Source: an uncultured bacterium (lineage in GTDB: Bacteria > Hydrothermota > Tepidihabitantia > SM23-42). From it: 64,000 bases of DNA. The stretch spans positions 28,284 to 92,283 of the forward strand of contig CAYQPW010000008.1 in the NCBI GenBank assembly GCA_964419565.1, written 5' to 3'. Each line of letters starts with the position of its first letter. The first letter of the stretch is position 1. Shown in pieces: positions 13,735 through 51,862 of the stretch. The notes beneath the pieces were generated by a model. It did not search any database and had not been told where the DNA came from. It worked only from the letters and a program-made list of their open reading frames with translations. The position numbers and the translations under genes were made by a program.

Positions 13735-14977
13735 AATTCTTGCAAAAATCGCCCTCTCTTTTCAGACATTCAAAACCCACAGACTGAGGTCTGTGCTTAC
13801 CGCCCTGGGTATCATAATTGGCGTAACGACGGTTATTGCTATCCTTTCTTTGATCGAGGGGTTGAATAATAGTGTTGCCGAACAGGTGAAATCGATCGGG
13901 TCAGATTTGATTTTTCTTCAAAAATTTACATGGGTATCGACTGGCCACCGCGATCTTGAAAAACTTGCAGATCGCCCTGATTTAACCCCAGATGATGCTG
14001 TGGCGATCACTAAATTACCATCCGTCGAAATAGCGATTCCTGATATCGATCAACGGATTACCAAGATAAAATACAGGAATAATGAAGTAAGTAACCCAAC
14101 GATTACTGGTTCCGATGAAAATTATTCATGGGTAAATAATCATATTATCGAGAGTGGTCGGGATTTCACAAAGGATGATGTTCTTCACCGTCGACCAATG
14201 GGTATTATCGGATCTTTTATAGCCGCACAATTATTCCCCGATGAATCCCCGATTGGCAAGGATCTATATATCGATGGGCATCGGATAAAGATAATTGGCG
14301 TATTCAAAGAAAAAGGCTCTTTTCTCGGTAATAGTCTTGATAATTTTATACTCATTCCTTATACGGTCTATGAGAAATTTTATCCGAGAAGCAGAGGATC
14401 TATTTTCTCTCGTATTTACGGTGGATACTCAATAGATATAAAACCAAAATCCGGGGAAAAGATGGAAGAGACTATCGATGAAGTTAGGGAACTCATGCGG
14501 CGTAGACATGGTCTTGGTTTTGATGAAGAAGATGATTTTGAGATGAACACCCAGCAATTACTCATGGAGCTCTACCAGAACATAACCAGGGTAGGCTTTA
14601 TTGCGATCGTTGCGATCGCTGCTATTTCGTTAGTGGTTGGGGGAATTGGCATTATGAATATTATGCTTGTTTCTGTAGCCGAGAGGACAAGGGAAATCGG
14701 TATTCGAAAAGCAGTTGGCGCTTCAAATCAATATATCCTTTCGCAATTTCTTGTTGAGTCGGTCATGCTTGCTCTGGCCGGTGGTATTATCGGAATATTT
14801 TTTGGTATGTTACTCGCTGCCTTGATCTCAATTGCATCACCCCTGAAAGCAGCCGTATCTTTCTGGATGATCCTTTTGGGTTTTGGATTTTCCGCGTCGG
14901 TCGGTATATTCTTTGGTATTTATCCAGCGCGGCGTGCCGCGTCACTAAACCCGATAGAAGCTCTCAGGTATGAATAG
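13727..14977 (+). CDS. ABC transporter permease, MacB/FtsX family
   Basis: MacB_PCD-like periplasmic domain followed by an FtsX C-terminal 3-TM domain (RTREIGIRKAVGAS...YPARRAASLNPIEALRYE). Confidence 0.9.
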   Translation: MIEILAKIALSFQTFKTHRLRSVLTALGIIIGVTTVIAILSLIEGLNNSVAEQVKSIGSDLIFLQKFTWVSTGHRDLEKLADRPDLTPDDAVAITKLPSVEIAIPDIDQRITKIKYRNNEVSNPTITGSDENYSWVNNHIIESGRDFTKDDVLHRRPMGIIGSFIAAQLFPDESPIGKDLYIDGHRIKIIGVFKEKGSFLGNSLDNFILIPYTVYEKFYPRSRGSIFSRIYGGYSIDIKPKSGEKMEETIDEVRELMRRRHGLGFDEEDDFEMNTQQLLMELYQNITRVGFIAIVAIAAISLVVGGIGIMNIMLVSVAERTREIGIRKAVGASNQYILSQFLVESVMLALAGGIIGIFFGMLLAALISIASPLKAAVSFWMILLGFGFSASVGIFFGIYPARRAASLNPIEALRYE

Positions 14978-15120
14978 CGGGGTGAGGTCTTGAAACTTAA
15001 AAATAGATTCTTAACGCGATCTTCAGTTAGCAATAACCTTGAGGGTGTATCTTAAATTTCAAGACCTGACCCCACTATGTCGTCTTGACATAAGAATAAT
15101 TTAGCATAAAATTATTTTAG

Positions 15121-18100: not shown

Positions 18101-18270
18101 CGCGCTTAGCTGGCGAAATTTACTTTTTGCGGGGCATTGTGTACAAAAAACAAAAAAAGACAAGAGAAGCTCTGAAGATGTTCCTTGAGGCGACCAATAT
18201 TTTCCGGGCTAAAGGCAATCTGAGATTCGTCGATAAGATCGAGCGGGAGATTACCGAAGCACATATTTAA
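15121..18270 (+). CDS. Diguanylate cyclase (GGDEF) fused to a STAND/AAA16-type P-loop NTPase and a C-terminal TPR array
   Basis: The GGDEF domain starts at residue about 7 (DELTGSYNRRF). I-site REVD lies 5 residues before RYGGDEY. P-loop AGGAGIGKTRLV at about residue 198-209, Walker B LLLLDDLHWLD, then about 450 aa of TPR-like repeats (AIKFYENALKY, GNVYEDMGDYKQSIKQYQ...). Confidence 0.85.
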   Translation: MREIYYDELTGSYNRRFLHYWIDNEIKRATRFPAKFAILMLDIDDFRNINNSCGHLEGDKVLIEFSRVLDINIREVDSLVRYGGDEYLILMPNTDESGAIELAQRVMDYLNESDIVGHKIHCSIGYAIFPEDGITSEPLINQADNLMYNAKEQGKNRIGSKQQAVKNLQIPSLETIGREDETNWCLGELKDYDTLFVAGGAGIGKTRLVLEIKDRINAPVFLRGNAYAALTSVPYHPFKNMFSEMIKRDFGLVQRVFKQLPAISQAEIMKIFPAESALKVTYAESLDKYRLYNSVSEFLQRVYDIHAPGKILLLLDDLHWLDKPSCELMDFVIRSTHGNCKIFGTYRIEEIKNSAIEEFYNVWIREKLYTQITVSPLNETQTERLLKAIMGKAPGSGFKHIFKQSGGNPFYLEEIIREMERQGKLYWNGKEWVFARRLEITIPSTIEATINRKLKFLDSEIKKYLEIAAVYGQEFGAEIIALASNRNVGQILDAIDELSRLGFLKERSHDNHFFSEDLVRQIVYNNINRQDLIKYHRAVGVTIETIYRNVLPNYYEQLATHFMIANEVSKALYYSKEAARKAQNNYAHSAAIKFYENALKYEDNIDEIFKIKFALAEIFFLIGKFDKAIEQLNVCLKINPNSYRVHEKLGNVYEDMGDYKQSIKQYQVGLKLTRGTDAVYSFESDIAWVHTRLGDYNKAEIKCHKVLTKRRHLSKQTLGDTYLILGVVYLRLGKFKKAESYIRKALKIRESSGDKKRIAACYLDLGLNYYEKLDEEKSHHFYNRALKIYKEIGHQQGILIAYNNIGALYANTDLTKAEEYYLEALKQAKLVNAKQSIVYLYSNLGAIEFNRMMYDQTLLHYKEALKHAKLMNYPAGIVFSNIGLSDFYREQGKIKRGKLHLERAIKAAERVDMKYLHLDCMKEEIDYLLLERKLKKADALSKKMLSALRMERKGSYKVNSFIYRGKVFTEQKKYPKALEHYTKAFSYLKTYPSTRLAGEIYFLRGIVYKKQKKTREALKMFLEATNIFRAKGNLRFVDKIEREITEAHI

Positions 18271-18310
18271 AAGTCATTAGCAGGATAGCAAAAAACAGGA
18301 GGCTTTAATT

Positions 18311-18340
18311 AAAAAGGGGGCATATACATGCCCCCTTTTT
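18311..18340. terminator. Bidirectional intrinsic terminator between convergent genes
   Basis: AAAAAGGGGGCAT-ATAC-ATGCCCCCTTTTT: a 13-bp perfect stem flanked by A and T runs, so it can work on both strands. Confidence 0.8.
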
Positions 18341-18361
18341 AATTAGATTAATTCCGCATTA

Positions 18362-46976: not shown

Positions 46977-47004
46977 TTGACTAAATAGATTTTCCATTTA
47001 TAAT
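46977..47004 (+). promoter_or_regulatory. Sigma70-type promoter for the riboswitch and TonB-dependent receptor transcript
   Basis: TTGACT (46977..46982), a 16-nt spacer, then TATAAT (46999..47004). Confidence 0.5.
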
Positions 47005-47011
47005 ACTCCAG

Positions 47012-47182
47012 GTTGGTGGATCCAAGGGAAGCACCGTGAGAATCGGTCGCGGTCGCCGCCACTGTGATTCTTTGTAAGACTCTGATCACTTAAAGTCACT
47101 GACGTCCACACACTGATCTTATTAGTGTCGGGGTTGGGAAGACTGATTAGAGCAAGATAAGTCAGGAGACCTATCCATCAAC
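47012..47182 (+). promoter_or_regulatory. Cobalamin (B12) riboswitch
   Basis: Conserved elements in order: GGTGG, AAGGGAAGC, CGTGAGAATCGG, GCCGCCACTGTGA, GGGAAGA, and a B12 box AGTCAGGAGACCTATCC. Closing P1 is GTTGGTGGAT (47012..47021) with ATCCATCAAC (47173..47182), including one G-U pair. It sits directly upstream of a TonB-dependent receptor. Confidence 0.8.
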
Positions 47183-47218
47183 ATCGCGAGAAAATCCTTC
47201 GGACGAAAGGGGGTAATA

Positions 47219-49174
47219 ATGATACCTTTGGCTTTTCTTGTCATACTCATTGCTCAACCGATCTATGAACTGGATGAGATCGTCGTTACTGCTACGCGTT
47301 ATCCTGCAGCTTTACAGGATGTCGCATTAGCAACGATAGTCATTGATCGGGAAGAACTCGACGAGTTCAATCCATCGAGTCTCACGGATGTTTTACAAAC
47401 ATACGCTGGTACTGATACCAAAGATTATGGTGTTCCAGGGACAGTGTCGAGCATATCTATCCGCGGCATTCCATCGAATGGCACACTGGTGCTCATTAAT
47501 GGTCATCCATTGAACTCGATAACCGTGGGGATGGCCGATCTGAGTGCGATAAATCTCAGTACAATCGAGCGTATTGAAATCGTTAAAGGACCGGTTTCAA
47601 GCTTGTACGGCGCGAATGGTCTTGGTGGTGCAGTAAATATCATAACAACAAAAGGTTATAAAAAGCCTGAATTCAAAATGTCCTTTTGTCCATCAACGAC
47701 CGATATAGATGTTCCCTTACAATCAAGAGAATTCTTTGCCAAACTGGGTTTACCAGCAGGTAGAATGATCTTTGACATTGCCGCAACATACGGTGCTTCT
47801 GATGGTTTCAGAGAAAACAGTGAATATACCGGCTATTATCTAACAGGTTCACTCGGCTATGAACTCGATAATACAAAGTTCATATCATCGCTGGTTTATA
47901 GTAATAGAGAATACGGATTGCCCGGACCAATGCTTGCCGATTCTACTTCCTCTTCTTTACTCGACCATGAGAAAGATGAATACCTTTTAGGAGATATAAA
48001 CATTTCATGGAACTTTTTAGAGAATTTTGCATGGGATAATACTTTATTTGCGGATCGTCGTTTTATCAAGTATCATACCGCGTATACGGATCTAAGTCAG
48101 GATACGCTGGAGAGTGATTATGATTACCTGACCTATGTTGTTGGCGTCAATTCGATCGCTCATTTTAAAAGCGGTAGGACTGATTTGACGATCGGTATTG
48201 ATACCCACTTTGACACCCTGGAAACGACTGAGACCCATGAGCTGTCGCGCGATACAATTTGGAATGCTTCTTCACATAATATCGGCGCCTGGCTTGAATT
48301 CAAATACCGAATAAAACATATTATTCTTGCGCCGAGCCTGAGATATGACCGGAATTCAAGGTTTGGGAATTTCCTTTCACCTGGGGTAGGTCTTATCAGC
48401 CCGCTTATTGATAATCTCTGGATTAAATTATCTGCGGGCAAGGCCTTTCGTGCACCGACATTCAATGACTTGTTCTGGCCTAATGCTGGCAATCCAGATC
48501 TTAAACCAGAACATGGCTGGGCATATGAATTACGCTTTGAAAGTTCTCCTTCACCGACGCTCTTCGCAGCATTATCTTTGTTTGCACGTTCTGTAAATGA
48601 CCGGATAGCCTGGCTTCCGGGCGATAATAATATGTGGCAGCCGCAGAATGTTAACCATATTTCAGTTCGTGGTGTGGATTTCGAAATGAACAAACAGATC
48701 AATGATTTCACAAACATTTATCTTGAAGGGTCTTATTTACAAGCAAAACAGAGAAACAATGAGATTACCTATGATTTTTATGATTGGGTAGCTGATACAA
48801 GCCTTACAATTATTGAAGAAGTAAAAAGAGATGCTGCTTTTACCCCAAAATATACGGCTTCAGCAAGACTCCATTTCAGTTTACCTTATGGATATGATTT
48901 TAATATCGAAGGTTTGTACGTCGCTGCGCAGGTCAACTATTATGTTAGTTATGATGAATACCCTGATATAACGATGGATACTAAAACACTCGATTCCTAT
49001 ATAATGCTCAATATAGGTTTTAGTAAAAAGGTCTTGAATTACCTGAAACTATCAGTCGGTGCGAAAAATCTACTAGACAAAGACCATGCGAAACAATTCG
49101 GTAATAGTATGACCGACTTGGATTATCCGATGCCTGGACGCCTGTTCTTTGCCCGGATCTCCATGGATTATTGA
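47219..49174 (+). CDS. btuB: TonB-dependent receptor, probable vitamin B12/cobinamide transporter (BtuB-like)
   Basis: Plug domain with a TonB-box-like DEIVVTATR and IEIVKGPVSSLYGANGLGGAVNIIT. A 22-strand-type barrel that ends ...FFARISMDY with a terminal aromatic. The riboswitch context supports B12 specificity. Confidence 0.8.
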   Translation: MIPLAFLVILIAQPIYELDEIVVTATRYPAALQDVALATIVIDREELDEFNPSSLTDVLQTYAGTDTKDYGVPGTVSSISIRGIPSNGTLVLINGHPLNSITVGMADLSAINLSTIERIEIVKGPVSSLYGANGLGGAVNIITTKGYKKPEFKMSFCPSTTDIDVPLQSREFFAKLGLPAGRMIFDIAATYGASDGFRENSEYTGYYLTGSLGYELDNTKFISSLVYSNREYGLPGPMLADSTSSSLLDHEKDEYLLGDINISWNFLENFAWDNTLFADRRFIKYHTAYTDLSQDTLESDYDYLTYVVGVNSIAHFKSGRTDLTIGIDTHFDTLETTETHELSRDTIWNASSHNIGAWLEFKYRIKHIILAPSLRYDRNSRFGNFLSPGVGLISPLIDNLWIKLSAGKAFRAPTFNDLFWPNAGNPDLKPEHGWAYELRFESSPSPTLFAALSLFARSVNDRIAWLPGDNNMWQPQNVNHISVRGVDFEMNKQINDFTNIYLEGSYLQAKQRNNEITYDFYDWVADTSLTIIEEVKRDAAFTPKYTASARLHFSLPYGYDFNIEGLYVAAQVNYYVSYDEYPDITMDTKTLDSYIMLNIGFSKKVLNYLKLSVGAKNLLDKDHAKQFGNSMTDLDYPMPGRLFFARISMDY

Positions 49175-49199
49175 CACCATAAATCATTTTGATTATACT
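49171..49199 (+). promoter_or_regulatory. Sigma70-type promoter for rnpB, overlapping the btuB-like stop codon
   Basis: TTGACA (49171..49176, containing the TGA stop at 49172..49174), a 17-nt spacer, then TATACT (49194..49199). The P1 5' strand begins about 6 nt downstream. Confidence 0.55.
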
Positions 49200-49252
49200 G
49201 ATATGTGGGGTGACTGGATAGCCGCTCCCACACTTTTAGGGAATAATGAATT

Positions 49253-49513
49253 ATGTTCTATGTCTATTTAATAAGAAGCAAAAAGGACAAGAGATTATAC
49301 ACTGGTTATGCTAATGACCTTAAACGAAGATTCAATGAACATAATTCAGGTTTCAACAAATGCACCAAGGGACGTGGACCGTTTGAGCTGATGTGTTATG
49401 AAGCATATGAAGCCAAACAAGATGCAGTACATCGGGAGAAAATGTTAAAGCTTAGAGCAAAAGCTCTCGGTCAATTAAAAAGACGTCTCCAATATAGTCT
49501 GGATATTCCCTAA
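49253..49513 (+). CDS. Small GIY-YIG nuclease-domain protein (86 aa) encoded inside the rnpB P3 loop
   Basis: MFYVYLIRSKKDKRLYTGYANDLKRRFNEHNSG... carries the GIY-YIG hallmarks (YVY...YTG, R, EHN). Confidence 0.8.
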   Translation: MFYVYLIRSKKDKRLYTGYANDLKRRFNEHNSGFNKCTKGRGPFELMCYEAYEAKQDAVHREKMLKLRAKALGQLKRRLQYSLDIP

Positions 49514-49614
49514 TAGTGTGGGAGAGGAAAGTCCGGGCTTCAAAGGGCAAGATGCTTCCTAACAGGAAGCCCCGCACCTTCTTTGTCATATGAGATTAGG
49601 GATGGATTATCGCT

Positions 49615-49848
49615 ATGCATTATGTTTACATTTTTAAGAAACGGAATAATGAAGAGATCTATATCGGTTGTACGAACAATCTCAAGAGAAGATCTCGAGA
49701 ACATAATGTCCACGGTATGAAGTGGGATTTGATTTATTATCAAGCATACAAGGCGCGAAAAGATGCTTACTTACGGGAAGAAAGGCTCAAGTATTATGGT
49801 CAGGCGCTTGGTCAACTTAAGAGGCGCATTAAGAATAGCCTTGTATGA
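49615..49848 (+). CDS. Small GIY-YIG nuclease-domain protein (77 aa) encoded inside the rnpB P9 loop
   Basis: MHYVYIFKKRNNEEIYIGCTNNLKRRSREHNVHG... is a paralog of the P3-loop ORF. Shared motifs are NxLKRR, EHN and the C-terminal ALGQLKRR. Confidence 0.8.
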   Translation: MHYVYIFKKRNNEEIYIGCTNNLKRRSREHNVHGMKWDLIYYQAYKARKDAYLREERLKYYGQALGQLKRRIKNSLV

Positions 49849-50167
49849 CAAAGAAGGTGCGGGGGGAAAGTGCCACAGAAAATATACCTCCAGCTACATT
49901 AGTGGTTGGTAAGGGTGAAATGGCGAGGTAAGAGCTCACCGCTTTAGTGGCGACACTAAAGGCACGGTAAACCCCATCTGAAGCAAAACCAAATAAGCCC
50001 CGTATGAAATGGCCCGTTTCTACTGCTTTGCAGTGACGGGGTGGGTAGGTTGCACAGAGCATAGTAGTGATACTATGCCAAGACAAATGGCTATCCTTGA
50101 CAGAACCCGGCTTATAGGTCACCCCGCTTGTTGGTTTATTCGGTAATTCCCGAAGAAATACGGAGGT

Positions 50168-51862
50168 ATGTTGACTGAGTGGGTGCCTAAGAATGAAGCT
50201 ATCGAGGCGAGTGATATAGAAATTCGCCATAAAAAGATCCCCAAACTCATTGTTCAAATTTTAAAAACGCGGGGTTATGATACACCCGAGAAAATAGAGA
50301 AATATTTTGCGCCGTCTTTGTCTGAATTACACGATCCGTTTTTATTGAGCGGTATGAAAAAAGCAGTGGAAAGGATAAAAAAAGCAATTGACCATAAAGA
50401 GAAAATATTAGTCCACGGCGATTATGACACTGATGGTATTACCGGTTCGGCACTCATAATCGAGAACCTGAGAAGATTCGGGCTCGAGGTTGAATATTAT
50501 ATCCCGAACCGGCTCATTGAAGGTTATGGACTTTCATCCGATGGGGTAAAGTATGCGATAGAAAAGAAATGTACCTTGGTAATTACGGTTGATTGTGGTA
50601 TTACCGCGATCCAGGAGATCCAGGAGGCAAAAGACAAAAATATCGATGTAATAATCTGTGATCACCATAAACCCCATTTAGAAATCCCTGATGCATATGC
50701 CATTCTCAATCCAAAATTACCCAGTGATAAATATCCTTTCAAAGAATTAGCCGGGATCGGCGTCGCCTTTAAAATGATACAGGGTCTATTAATGGATCTG
50801 GAACAACCGATTGAACGATCATACGATGACCTGGACCTTGTCGCTCTTGGCAGTGTTGTCGATGTCGTACCCCTGATCGACGAAAACCGCGTGCTCGTCA
50901 AGTACGGTATGAAAAAGATCGGTAAAAGCAAGAAAGTCGGTTTACAAGCGATGCTAAAACAAGTCGGTCTAAGGGGTGATATAACCGCATACCATCTCGG
51001 ATTTATAATAGGGCCAAGGATCAATGCATGCGGCCGGCTGCGTCATGCAGAAGAAGCCCTGGAACTCTTTCTGACCAATGATATGAAAAAGGCGACTGAG
51101 CTTGTGGGGAATCTTTCAGCTGACAATCAAGAGAGACGATCGATCGAGGGGAAAATTTATCGGGAAGCCAGGTCGATGATCGAAGAACTTGGCTATGCTA
51201 AAGACCGCATAATTATCGCGCAAAAACAAGGTTGGCATGAGGGTGTCGTCGGGATCGTTGCCTCGACAATAAGCGAGGATTTTTACCGGCCTTCGATCCT
51301 GTTATCTGCTAAAGAGAATGTTTTAAAGGGCTCGGCCCGGTCCATCCCGGGTATCGATATCACCGAAGGACTCAGTGTTTGTCAGGAATATCTTAGTAGA
51401 TACGGCGGTCACAGCCAGGCTGCTGGTTTGGAATTGGAAATCAGTAAAATCACGCAATTGCGTGTTTGTATTAATGAATATGCGCAGAAATTTGACGATA
51501 CGATCTTTACAAAAAAACGTTCTTATGATGCGCAGGTATCGCTCGATCAATTGACTGAAGATGTCGTATATTTCTTGAAGTATTTTGAACCGACCGGTTT
51601 GGCAAATCCTCAACCGGTTTTTTTAGGCAAAAACCTTGAAGTCGTCGGTGTACCGAGAGTAGTTGGCAGCGACCATTTGAAATTCGCGCTAAGGGATAAT
51701 AACAGAGTGCTCGATGCCATCGCTTTTTGCCAGGCTGGTAAGATCCTCGATATCGAGGTCGGGAAAACCCGACTCGATTGTCTTTTTTCAATATCCGAGG
51801 ATTCATTTACCGGCAAGAAAAAAACGACCCTCAAGATCAAAGAAATAAAGGTAAGTATTTGA
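50168..51862 (+). CDS. recJ: Single-stranded-DNA-specific exonuclease RecJ
   Basis: DHH motifs (ILVHGDYDTDGITGSA, ITVDCGI, ICDHH), the DHHA1 domain (GGHSQAAG) and a C-terminal OB-like domain. SD GGAGG. Confidence 0.93.
   Translation: MLTEWVPKNEAIEASDIEIRHKKIPKLIVQILKTRGYDTPEKIEKYFAPSLSELHDPFLLSGMKKAVERIKKAIDHKEKILVHGDYDTDGITGSALIIENLRRFGLEVEYYIPNRLIEGYGLSSDGVKYAIEKKCTLVITVDCGITAIQEIQEAKDKNIDVIICDHHKPHLEIPDAYAILNPKLPSDKYPFKELAGIGVAFKMIQGLLMDLEQPIERSYDDLDLVALGSVVDVVPLIDENRVLVKYGMKKIGKSKKVGLQAMLKQVGLRGDITAYHLGFIIGPRINACGRLRHAEEALELFLTNDMKKATELVGNLSADNQERRSIEGKIYREARSMIEELGYAKDRIIIAQKQGWHEGVVGIVASTISEDFYRPSILLSAKENVLKGSARSIPGIDITEGLSVCQEYLSRYGGHSQAAGLELEISKITQLRVCINEYAQKFDDTIFTKKRSYDAQVSLDQLTEDVVYFLKYFEPTGLANPQPVFLGKNLEVVGVPRVVGSDHLKFALRDNNRVLDAIAFCQAGKILDIEVGKTRLDCLFSISEDSFTGKKKTTLKIKEIKVSI

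Follow-up and report, generated by a model that had tools for sequence, protein, structure and literature searches.

Hairpin-clamped GIY-YIG nuclease cassettes inside the RNase P RNA gene of a WOR-3 bacterium

Introduction

Intervening sequences (IVSs) interrupt 23S/16S ribosomal RNA (rRNA) genes at helix 25 and helix 45 in Salmonella, Leptospira, Coxiella and other bacteria, and some of them carry an open reading frame (ORF; the 23S_rRNA_IVP family). An IVS is defined by RNase III cleavage and the resulting fragmentation of the rRNA. Here, we analyze a comparable arrangement, known from sequence alone, in the gene for RNase P RNA (rnpB), which encodes one of the best-studied ribozymes. The gene lies in a 64,000-nt stretch (hereafter the window) of contig CAYQPW010000008.1 from an uncultured sediment bacterium, assigned to candidate division WOR-3 by its RecJ homologs, and contains two single-domain GIY-YIG nuclease genes. 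Each of them is held in the loop of a long hairpin, which we call the clamp: ORF1 in helix P3 and ORF2 in helix P9. The clamp, the nuclease gene and the position in a structured RNA are all reminiscent of described systems.

GIY-YIG ORFs have been found in non-intron insertions at the stem-loop tips of rRNA genes of the Candidate Phyla Radiation (CPR), scattered over several sites; the first report of these is credited to reference 2 of that study, in which short non-intron insertions at known 23S IVS sites are regarded as probably of the same type as RNase III-cleaved IVSs (PMC11270868). Ssn proteins are single-domain GIY-YIG enzymes that cut single-stranded DNA (ssDNA) next to hairpins flanking their own genes, an architecture that their authors describe as similar to insertion sequences (ISs) or RAYTs (PMC11893778). 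As far as we found, insertions of the type described here have been reported in rRNA genes and the RNase P case is apparently new: we found no paper on ORF-bearing insertions in bacterial rnpB, and searches combining rnpB with GIY-YIG, IVS or ORF gave only mitochondrial papers.

Results

ORF1 is an insert in the P3 loop of a complete rnpB gene

ORF1 is clamped by a two-part helix with its stop codon inside the 3' arm, as a sequence-only reading of this DNA had proposed. More specifically, the outer helix is formed by CTCCCACACT (49225-49234) and its exact reverse complement AGTGTGGGAG (49515-49524), and the inner one by TAGGGAATA (49237-49245) and TATTCCCTA (49504-49512), which likewise match exactly. 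The clamp thus consists of 10 bp, a single T.T mismatch (49235/49514) and another 10 bp, with T49236 pairing to A49513. RNAfold of 49205-49540 returned exactly this helix (-102.4 kcal/mol, z = -5.3). ORF1 fills the loop, starting 7 nt 3' of the 5' arm, and only about 33 nt of the 294-nt P3 insert are non-coding. On the other side, the 3' arm runs straight into conserved region I (CR-I) of the ribozyme, where AGGAAAGTCC begins at 49525. Such a clamp is not a chance occurrence: apart from the two GIY-YIG clamps, the 64-kb window has no inverted repeat of at least 20 nt with at least 92% complementarity and a spacer above 100 nt.

The sequence-only reading had named, as a finding that would count against it, homologous loci with the ORF as an independent gene upstream of an rnpB starting at about 49515. 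A strong promoter and, at the expected spacing from it, the 5' strands of P1 and P2 are all found upstream of ORF1 and relatives have empty-site alleles, which together place ORF1 in the P3 loop. P1 is formed by 49207-49214 (GGGGTGAC) with 50118-50125 and P2 by 49216-49223 (GGATAGCC) with 50089-50096, each a perfect 8 bp. Their strands stand on both sides of both inserts and both helices are kept in the minimum free energy (MFE) structure of the precursor. P1, P8, the two clamps and the 3' domains all form at once in this 928-nt MFE structure (z = -7.2), and the RNA excised in silico (404 nt) has a compact fold. Without both cassettes, rnpB would be about 350 nt long, and the two inserts have CR-I and the P8 hairpin between them. 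An equivalent of the promoter, TTGACA...TATA(C/A)T, is also found 5' of rnpB in three relatives (L103, L105 and L106, L-numbers denoting fetched relative loci).

The Rfam model RF00010 matched the gene with 183 bits (threshold 100) at 49774-50130. Its 5' part was misaligned and the 5' strands were mispaired, as two inserts of about 290 nt are more than the model can span; the CR-I piece was recovered as a separate match from 49515 onward, and the gene has the class A core (CR-I to CR-V). In single-insert relatives, model positions 1-367 are aligned at 245-257 bits, with a 291-nt ORF block within one hairpin.

Both ORFs score above the curated PF01541 cutoff of 22.6 bits (41.3 bits for ORF2), and the residues Y5, Y16, R26, H30 and E62, invariant in the family alignment, are present in ORF1. 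The nearest solved relatives of the nuclease are UPF0213 proteins (1zg2, E = 2.7e-10). Nothing in NCBIfam scored above cutoff (TIGR01453 reached 20.7 bits against a cutoff of 56). The GIY-YIG domain is the sole domain encoded in the cassette, with no recognized transposase, and no promoter of the cassette's own is apparent.

The clamp arms travel with the nuclease gene

Empty, filled and solo-hairpin alleles were compared among relatives; a metagenome retrieval anchored on recJ gave only six loci, which provided empty-site alleles but were too few to build a dense phylogeny. In L007, L009, L023 and L105, the empty P3 is a hairpin of 3 bp, GCCG-CTC-TATGT-GAG-AGGAAAG, that is GCCGCTC-TATGT-GAGAGGAAAG (hairpin sequence GCCGCTCTATGTGAGAGG), and L106 has the close variant GCCCGCT-TTATGT-GAGAGGAAAG. 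The filled P3 of the window and of L103 has CCACACT...AGTGTGG, a total of 294 nt, in place of the TATGT loop. P9 of L007, L009 and L023 holds a nuclease gene 78-88% identical to ORF1 together with the arms of the P3 cassette. The arms common to these P9 copies and to P3 of the window read CCCCCACACT[T/A]TT[A/G]GGGAATA / TATTCCC[T/C]AA[A/T]A[G/A]TGTGGGGG, the shared 5' arm of the three P9 copies also being given as CCCACACT[T/A]TT[A/G]GGGAATA, and three compensatory pairs are found among the arms of ORF1-type orthologs. Because the same arms accompany the ORF1-type gene into P9 of genomes with an empty P3, the two-part helix is the terminal inverted repeat of the cassette. The sequence-only reading had equated this helix with P3; instead, only its outermost 3 bp (CTC 49225-49227 with GAG 49522-49524) are native, and the rest came with the cassette.

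ORF2-type arms behave likewise. In L128, arms of 21 bp (TCCCGCACCTTTCAAGTCATA/..., with four compensatory changes in the inner half) accompany the ORF to a tRNA 3' flank, and arms and ORF are also found together in P12 of another rnpB (L130). P9 is unoccupied in L103 (CCGCAC-TGTG-GTGCGG; empty P9 hairpin sequence GTCCGCACTGTGGTGCGGGG), and in L106 and L107 it holds an imperfect, ORF-less hairpin with ORF2-type arms (1152-1193 in L106). ORF-less inserts with family-type arms are also found in P12 of L020 (1644-1823) and in P3 of L130 (1265-1368), both of which fold stably; we considered these two as decayed nuclease genes and rejected this, no coding remnant being detectable in either. CR-I adjoins the clamp in the P3 inserts of L020, L067, L081, L101 and L103 just as it does in the window.

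The flanks of P3 and P9 share a short similarity, 5' CTGGA(T)AGCC..CC and 3' GGG(A/G)G(A/G)GGAAAGT, which may guide ectopic copying between the two sites.

The L020 locus deserves a separate remark. In its cassette at 1284-1589 (protein P0005), a 4-nt deletion before the stop codon causes a frameshift, and the ORF reads through the 3' arm and CR-I to end at a TAA in the P8 loop. The C-terminal tail of the protein, ...ESVGEESPGFTGQDAS, is translated ribozyme core.

A second, paralogous cassette occupies P9 of the same gene

ORF2 is 43% identical to ORF1 and forms a paralogous cassette at 49570-49864 within the same rnpB. Its clamp is a perfect 21-bp repeat, which the finding text of the sequence-only reading did not include. 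The placement in P9 is given by the alignment with the L103 allele GTCCGCAC-TGTG-GTGCGGGG and with the solo hairpin of L106; relative to the latter, the ORF2 core is flanked by a 5-nt TATGA direct repeat. Inside the ORF2 cassette, just 5' of the start codon (49583-49610), TTGTCA-16-GATTAT weakly resembles a promoter (9/12); the region has no more such matches than shuffled sequence. Features of the locus are collected in Table 1.

Table 1. Features of the interrupted rnpB gene, in window coordinates.
Feature	Position	Strand	Details
rnpB promoter, sigma-70 type	49171..49199	+	TTGACA-17-TATACT, 11/12 matches; transcription start ~49205-49208, the first P1 bases
rnpB, complete class A RNase P RNA gene	49207..50130	+	~924 nt with two cassettes
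P3 clamp, 5' arm	49225..49245	+	CTC 49225-49227 is native P3; terminal inverted repeat of the cassette from ~49228
ORF1 start-codon hairpin, 12 bp	49247..49348	+	TGAATTATGTTC (49247-49258) / GAACATAATTCA (49337-49348, codons E-H-N-S); in the MFE structures of the local segment and the precursor
ORF1, 86-aa single-domain GIY-YIG nuclease	49253..49513	+	PF01541, E = 8.7e-18, 64.8 bits; TAA 49511-49513 in 3' arm
P3 clamp, 3' arm	49504..49524	+	overlaps last 10 nt of ORF1; GAG 49522-49524 is native P3
CR-I / P4 strand	49525..49540	+	AGGAAAGTCCGGGCTT; directly adjoins P3 clamp
P9 clamp, 5' arm	49570..49590	+	CCCCGCACCTTCTTTGTCATA; 21/21 complementary
ORF2, 77-aa GIY-YIG nuclease	49615..49848	+	PF01541, E = 1.9e-10; TGA 49846-49848 in 3' arm
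P9 clamp, 3' arm	49844..49864	+	TATGACAAAGAAGGTGCGGGG, then GGAAAGTGCCACAGAAA (P10/P11)

Start codons pair with the codons of the catalytic motif

In both ORFs, the start codon pairs with codons of the catalytic E-H-N motif. ATGTTC and GAACAT are reverse complements of each other, and the pairing continues into the leader. For ORF2, the hairpin analogous to that of ORF1 joins 49618-49626 to 49700-49708. The ORF1 start hairpin is invariant in five orthologs, even though the proportion of synonymous differences (pS) between them reaches 0.9. Across the family, cognate pairs of start hairpins are more stable than non-cognate pairs (permutation p = 2e-4, not corrected for phylogeny).

The cassette family recurs in several structured-RNA genes

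A scan of GTDB species genomes revealed at least 579 relatives, and the family is found mostly in Patescibacteria, as are most of the nearest relatives outside the lineage (55-69% identity). The architecture was surveyed in 61 loci with a parsed ORF. A tight clamp is found in 44 of them, with arms of 22 nt and a start codon 4 nt past the 5' arm (medians). For 37 of these 44, the 3' arm contains the whole stop codon, and the geometry first noted in ORF1 is thus shared family-wide. Arms vary from locus to locus with their complementarity kept (846 of 902 positions are Watson-Crick); the outer arm ends are often (A)CCCCCACAC.../...GTGTGGGGG(T), and the inner halves vary freely yet remain complementary. 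Carriage by phages was considered and rejected, as viral contigs gave only distant, partial matches.

About 30% of scanned loci lie in or beside stable-RNA genes. Cassettes in rnpB occupy P3, P9, P12 or the P15-17 region overall (L020, L023, L041, L067, L081, L101, L103 and L130). In Patescibacteria, rnpB P3 is occupied in L067, L101 and L081, where CR-I abuts the arm, and P1 strands are found on both sides in L067 and L101; in L041 the cassette is in the P15-17 arm. Two 23S rRNA genes carry a cassette, L063 and, in the helix-45 region of a member of Patescibacteria, L033; we take the latter to be the classical site of RNase III-processed IVSs. A 16S rRNA cassette is found in L090, with flanks that indicate helix 6. 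The helix names at these rRNA sites rest partly on what we take to be the E. coli rRNA sequence and numbering. At tRNA genes, cassettes overlap the first 4-10 nt of the gene or lie just upstream. Intergenic copies are found as well, some of them beside ORF-less hairpins with the same termini.

Among the tRNA contexts, a subgroup abutting tRNA genes (L024, L042, L074 and L102, also L026, L046, L047, L053 and L070) has arms of the form GCCCCTCAC.../...GTGAGGGGC. Here the tRNA shares its first 4-10 nt with the 3' arm, and a partial duplicate of the tRNA 5' end is present in the 5' flank, for example GGGGCGGTTA|GCCCC...GGGGC|GGTTAGCTCAG in L074; other members lie at most 50 nt upstream of tRNAs. 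This arrangement suggests that the cassettes insert at tRNA 5' ends and restore the gene, and that RNase P cleaves inside the clamp. A further divergent member, intergenic and clamped by ACCCCGGTTAGAGAT / ATCTCTAACGGGGT, is found at 1470-1765 of L096, from the same metagenome-assembled genome as L023 (sister WOR-3); its arm type is also present in L094 and L098 of Planctomycetota.

Selection and mobility

For ORF1-type orthologs, the ratio of nonsynonymous to synonymous substitution (dN/dS) ranges from 0.04 to 0.13, with 0.31 for the closest pair; judging by these ratios, the nuclease is kept by purifying selection. The pS of the element is well below that of the adjacent recJ in both comparisons made, 0.38 against 0.77 between the window and L007 and 0.16 against 0.45 between the window and L103.

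The hosts of L007 and L009 have RecJ proteins that are 97% identical and P9 is filled in both, with nucleases that are 80% identical at the nucleotide level. The L007 nuclease groups with the P3 copy of the window (88% amino acid identity), and the L009 nuclease groups with the P3 copy of L020 (88% amino acid identity), whose RecJ is only 56% identical. The nuclease phylogeny thus conflicts with both host and insertion site, and therefore cassettes move. Across relatives, P3, P9 and P12 are each found filled, empty or with a solo hairpin, a pattern that indicates repeated gain, loss, replacement and site switching, and with them ongoing mobility.

Comparison with described elements

Like rRNA IVSs, the cassette replaces the apical loop of a peripheral helix in an essential structural RNA and its complementary ends extend that helix; both are sporadic among relatives, and IVSs are thought to spread horizontally. 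They differ in their host, which is rRNA for IVSs and the RNase P ribozyme here, and in their cargo, an IVP protein as opposed to a GIY-YIG nuclease. The cassettes most likely belong to the same element family as the GIY-YIG insertions of CPR rRNA genes, for which the clamp, the RNase P and tRNA contexts and mobility were not described (PMC11270868); here the host is WOR-3 and the evidence for site switching is direct.

With Ssn, the cassette shares a single-domain GIY-YIG protein without DNA-binding domain, of about 90 amino acids in Ssn and of 86 and 77 here, a gene bracketed by hairpin-forming inverted repeats and, in some genomes, ORF-less hairpin copies dispersed nearby. GGGAAT/ATTCCC is common to the inner arm of the window clamp and to the dRS3/NTS core. 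In Ssn, however, a complete short hairpin stands on each flank, whereas in the cassette each flank supplies half of a single hairpin that holds the gene in its loop. No link to RNA genes has been reported for Ssn.

REP/REPIN-RAYT systems and the IS200/IS605 family likewise consist of a small nuclease gene flanked by inverted, hairpin-forming repeats, with non-autonomous hairpin copies elsewhere, and their chemistry and that of the cassette are likely to be action on ssDNA hairpins. They differ in using an HUH Y1 transposase and a subterminal hairpin at each end, as opposed to a GIY-YIG nuclease and one enclosing hairpin, and in that the cassette targets the hairpin loop of a structured RNA. 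As in ISs and miniature inverted-repeat transposable elements, terminal inverted repeats are present (arms of 20-21 bp that move with the ORF). The cassette encodes no recognized transposase. Homing endonucleases such as I-TevI and Seg resemble the cassette in their GIY-YIG catalytic domain, in spreading selfishly and in favoring genes that are conserved and highly expressed, but they have 200-300 amino acids, modular DNA-binding domains, intron splicing or intergenic placement, and no terminal inverted repeats.

Genomic neighborhood

In relatives, a TonB receptor gene with a cobalamin riboswitch is followed by rnpB and then recJ. In the window, the riboswitch (66 bits, 47001-47192) lies 5' of the TonB-dependent receptor gene (47219-49174), which directly precedes rnpB; this is conserved in L007 and L008. 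Minus-strand mechanical ORFs run over the rnpB core at 49829-50257, and a minus-strand 77-aa gene is called there in L002 (3577-3810) and L124 (1415-1648). These are likely annotation artefacts that arise where an interrupted rnpB goes unrecognized. Other, unrelated expansions are found in P13 and P14/P18 of related rnpB genes (1240-1300 and 1325-1375 in L105, 1285-1335 in L106 and 1815-1855 in L130), and rnpB of this lineage appears unusually permissive to insertions. In L104 (1-1110), the recJ side is identical to that of L103 and the DNA upstream of the last 14 nt of rnpB is unrelated and coding, reflecting either a rearrangement that destroyed rnpB or a chimeric assembly.

Two further inverted repeats of the window are not of the cassette type. 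The first, at 14974-15078, is an ordinary hairpin of opposite polarity located between two genes, its imperfect 27-nt repeat enclosing a spacer of 51 nt. The second is a perfect 18-bp hairpin at 18306-18345 (TAATTAAAAAGGGGGCAT/ATGCCCCCTTTTTAATTA) just past an ORF ending at 18270, and is probably a bidirectional terminator.

Discussion

ORF1 lies inside an RNA gene, its arms are borne by the cassette, and a paralogous cassette sits in P9 of the same gene; both belong to a large family of the same architecture that is found at the tips of peripheral hairpins of stable-RNA genes and between genes. We consider it probable that the apical loop of rnpB P3 harbors, at 49228-49521, a self-contained mobile cassette made up of a minimal GIY-YIG gene and a terminal inverted repeat of about 20 bp.

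Such a cassette would be transcribed from the rnpB promoter as part of the rnpB precursor. Its arms would pair in the transcript and prolong the interrupted helix, and the ribozyme core would fold as it does with a long hairpin; because the arms make the insert a helix extension, peripheral loops would tolerate it and only hairpin tips would be hit. The ribosome-binding region and start codon stand at the foot of the clamp, and the nuclease would be translated from the nascent precursor in one early round, before the 3' arm is made. A terminating ribosome would have to open the 3' arm and cover CR-I. Closure of the clamp and of the start-codon hairpin would then block initiation, after which P3 and P4 form; expression would therefore be low and coupled to rnpB transcription. 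At about 21 bp, the helix is as long as RNase III requires and would be cut as in rRNA IVSs, removing the ORF, or else the insert would simply stay. Excision would leave a three-piece RNase P RNA held together by pairing in P1/P2/P3 and P9, and reconstitution of M1 RNA from fragments is known in vitro. Mutual exclusion of translation and folding and RNase III cleavage, both put forward by the sequence-only reading, are reasonable possibilities. At the DNA level, an Ssn/UPF0213-like nuclease would nick hairpin loops or solo hairpins, and the cassette would be copied in by way of its arms and the short flank similarity. The near-perfect Watson-Crick arms without G.U excess point to such pairing or copying of DNA.

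Several observations weigh against this explanation. The Shine-Dalgarno-like sequence before ORF1, AGGGA, is weak, and translation of ORF1 is putative. Comparison with related P3 hairpins, from which the sequence-only reading had hoped for the insertion point and any target-site duplication, placed the former in the TATGT loop and revealed no duplication at P3 when empty sites were compared. No further cassette or solo hairpin of either type was found in the window by tblastn and arm-motif searches, which thus shows no sign of local proliferation. The SRM motif of Ssn (HGTCWY...RNCYNB) does not occur within 150 nt of any of the 61 surveyed ORFs or in 49150-49950, and the 234 kb of survey loci contain one match against 0.7 in shuffles; in this respect the family does not resemble Ssn. 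Part of the lower synonymous divergence of the element could reflect constraint on RNA structure instead of transfer. Finally, arm mismatches comprise 20 G.T and 13 A.C, without an excess of G.U, and are uninformative as to selection on RNA or on DNA, and arm complementarity could be maintained purely at the DNA level.

The last point leads to one of two alternatives that we regard as possible though unlikely, in which the arms are terminal inverted repeats or an ssDNA hairpin for the nuclease, as in IS ends or REP/RAYT, and any effect on RNA is incidental. It is favored by arms in intergenic copies outside RNA genes (L011, L012, L017 and L096), by their almost perfect Watson-Crick pairing without G.U bias, by nearby ORF-less solo hairpins with the same termini (L012, L014, L040 and L106) and by the fact that Ssn enzymes act on ssDNA hairpins and not on RNA. 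It leaves unexplained the tolerance of insertions precisely at the hairpin tips of essential RNAs, the overlap of stop codon and arm, and the start-codon hairpin, and it is compatible with the mobile cassette proposed above, not exclusive of it.

The other, of similarly limited likelihood, is that the insert is a retained expansion segment: nothing would be excised, the mature RNA would be about 0.9 kb long with its core insulated by the clamp, and the ORF would be translated from the stable RNA or hardly at all. The full-length RNA indeed folds with an intact core, P3, P9 and P12 are generally known to be peripheral, and nothing in the sequence demands cleavage; the read-through of CR-I into the P8 loop in L020 would also be more easily tolerated if the ORF were rarely translated. 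The counterarguments are by analogy: RNase III typically acts on stable-RNA helices of at least 20 bp, and a classical 23S IVS site is occupied by homologous cassettes. Insertions of this kind were also reportedly found to be absent from mature rRNA in earlier work (Brown et al. 2015). Moreover, the non-intron insertions of CPR rRNA are regarded as probably of the RNase III-cleaved IVS type (PMC11270868).

We find it improbable that the nuclease is a domesticated, immobile host gene, for example one with an Ssn-like control of incoming ssDNA that resides in rnpB for its strong constitutive transcription. Strong purifying selection, the Ssn precedent for a role at the host level and an arrangement that is identical in 11 contigs from several samples would fit such a gene, but it is at odds with site switching among P3, P9 and P12, with presence/absence polymorphism among close relatives, with the incongruent nuclease phylogeny in a host pair with 97% identical RecJ and with two paralogous copies in one gene.

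Still less probable is a native P3 of unusual length (19-20 bp), in the loop of which a free-standing GIY-YIG gene has landed. The helix is at the P3 position and abuts CR-I, and P3 is generally known to vary in length among bacteria; against this, the empty alleles of five related loci have a 3-bp P3 with the loop TATGT, which led us to reject a native long P3, the same arm accompanies an orthologous ORF in P9 of other genomes, and throughout the family the clamp accompanies the ORF into unrelated contexts. That the ORF is a separate gene 5' of an rnpB starting at about 49515, or that the insert is a group I/II intron with a homing endonuclease, we dismiss with near certainty even though Rfam alone aligns just the 3' part of the gene and gene callers annotate the ORFs as ordinary genes, the former being ruled out by the promoter and the P1/P2 pairing strands upstream of the ORF, and the latter by the lack of any match to an intron family in the window, by the few non-coding nucleotides of the insert, which leave no room for a ribozyme, and by an 86-aa protein without the DNA-binding domains of intron-encoded GIY-YIG enzymes.

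On a broader and much more tentative view, to which we give clearly less than even weight, the mobile cassettes would form a distinct class of autonomous element: one DNA hairpin carrying in its loop a minimal GIY-YIG nuclease specific for hairpins, and homing into the apical loops of other hairpins. Structured-RNA genes (RNase P RNA, rRNA, tRNA leaders) would be safe havens, as the arms rebuild the helix in the transcript, and the RNase P RNA of this WOR-3 bacterium would be made from a 0.9-kb precursor that doubles as mRNA for two nucleases and is cut by RNase III into three paired pieces.

Three formerly separate observations, the GIY-YIG ORFs of CPR rRNA genes, RNase III-type IVSs and the hairpin-flanked Ssn nucleases, are tied together by a common plan, that of a gene looped out by its own hairpin and ending with its stop codon in the hairpin arm. 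In practice, such inserts break the annotation of rnpB by covariance models, Rfam having aligned no more than 357 nt at the 3' end in the window, and spurious ORFs are added by gene callers. The empty, filled and solo-hairpin alleles make the mechanism of homing testable. Finally, one rnpB with two nested protein genes, together with related rnpB genes that hold them in four different helices, provides a natural experiment on where in the ribozyme large insertions are tolerated, and makes this gene a candidate for a naturally split RNase P RNA, in which one RNA would be both ribozyme precursor and mRNA.

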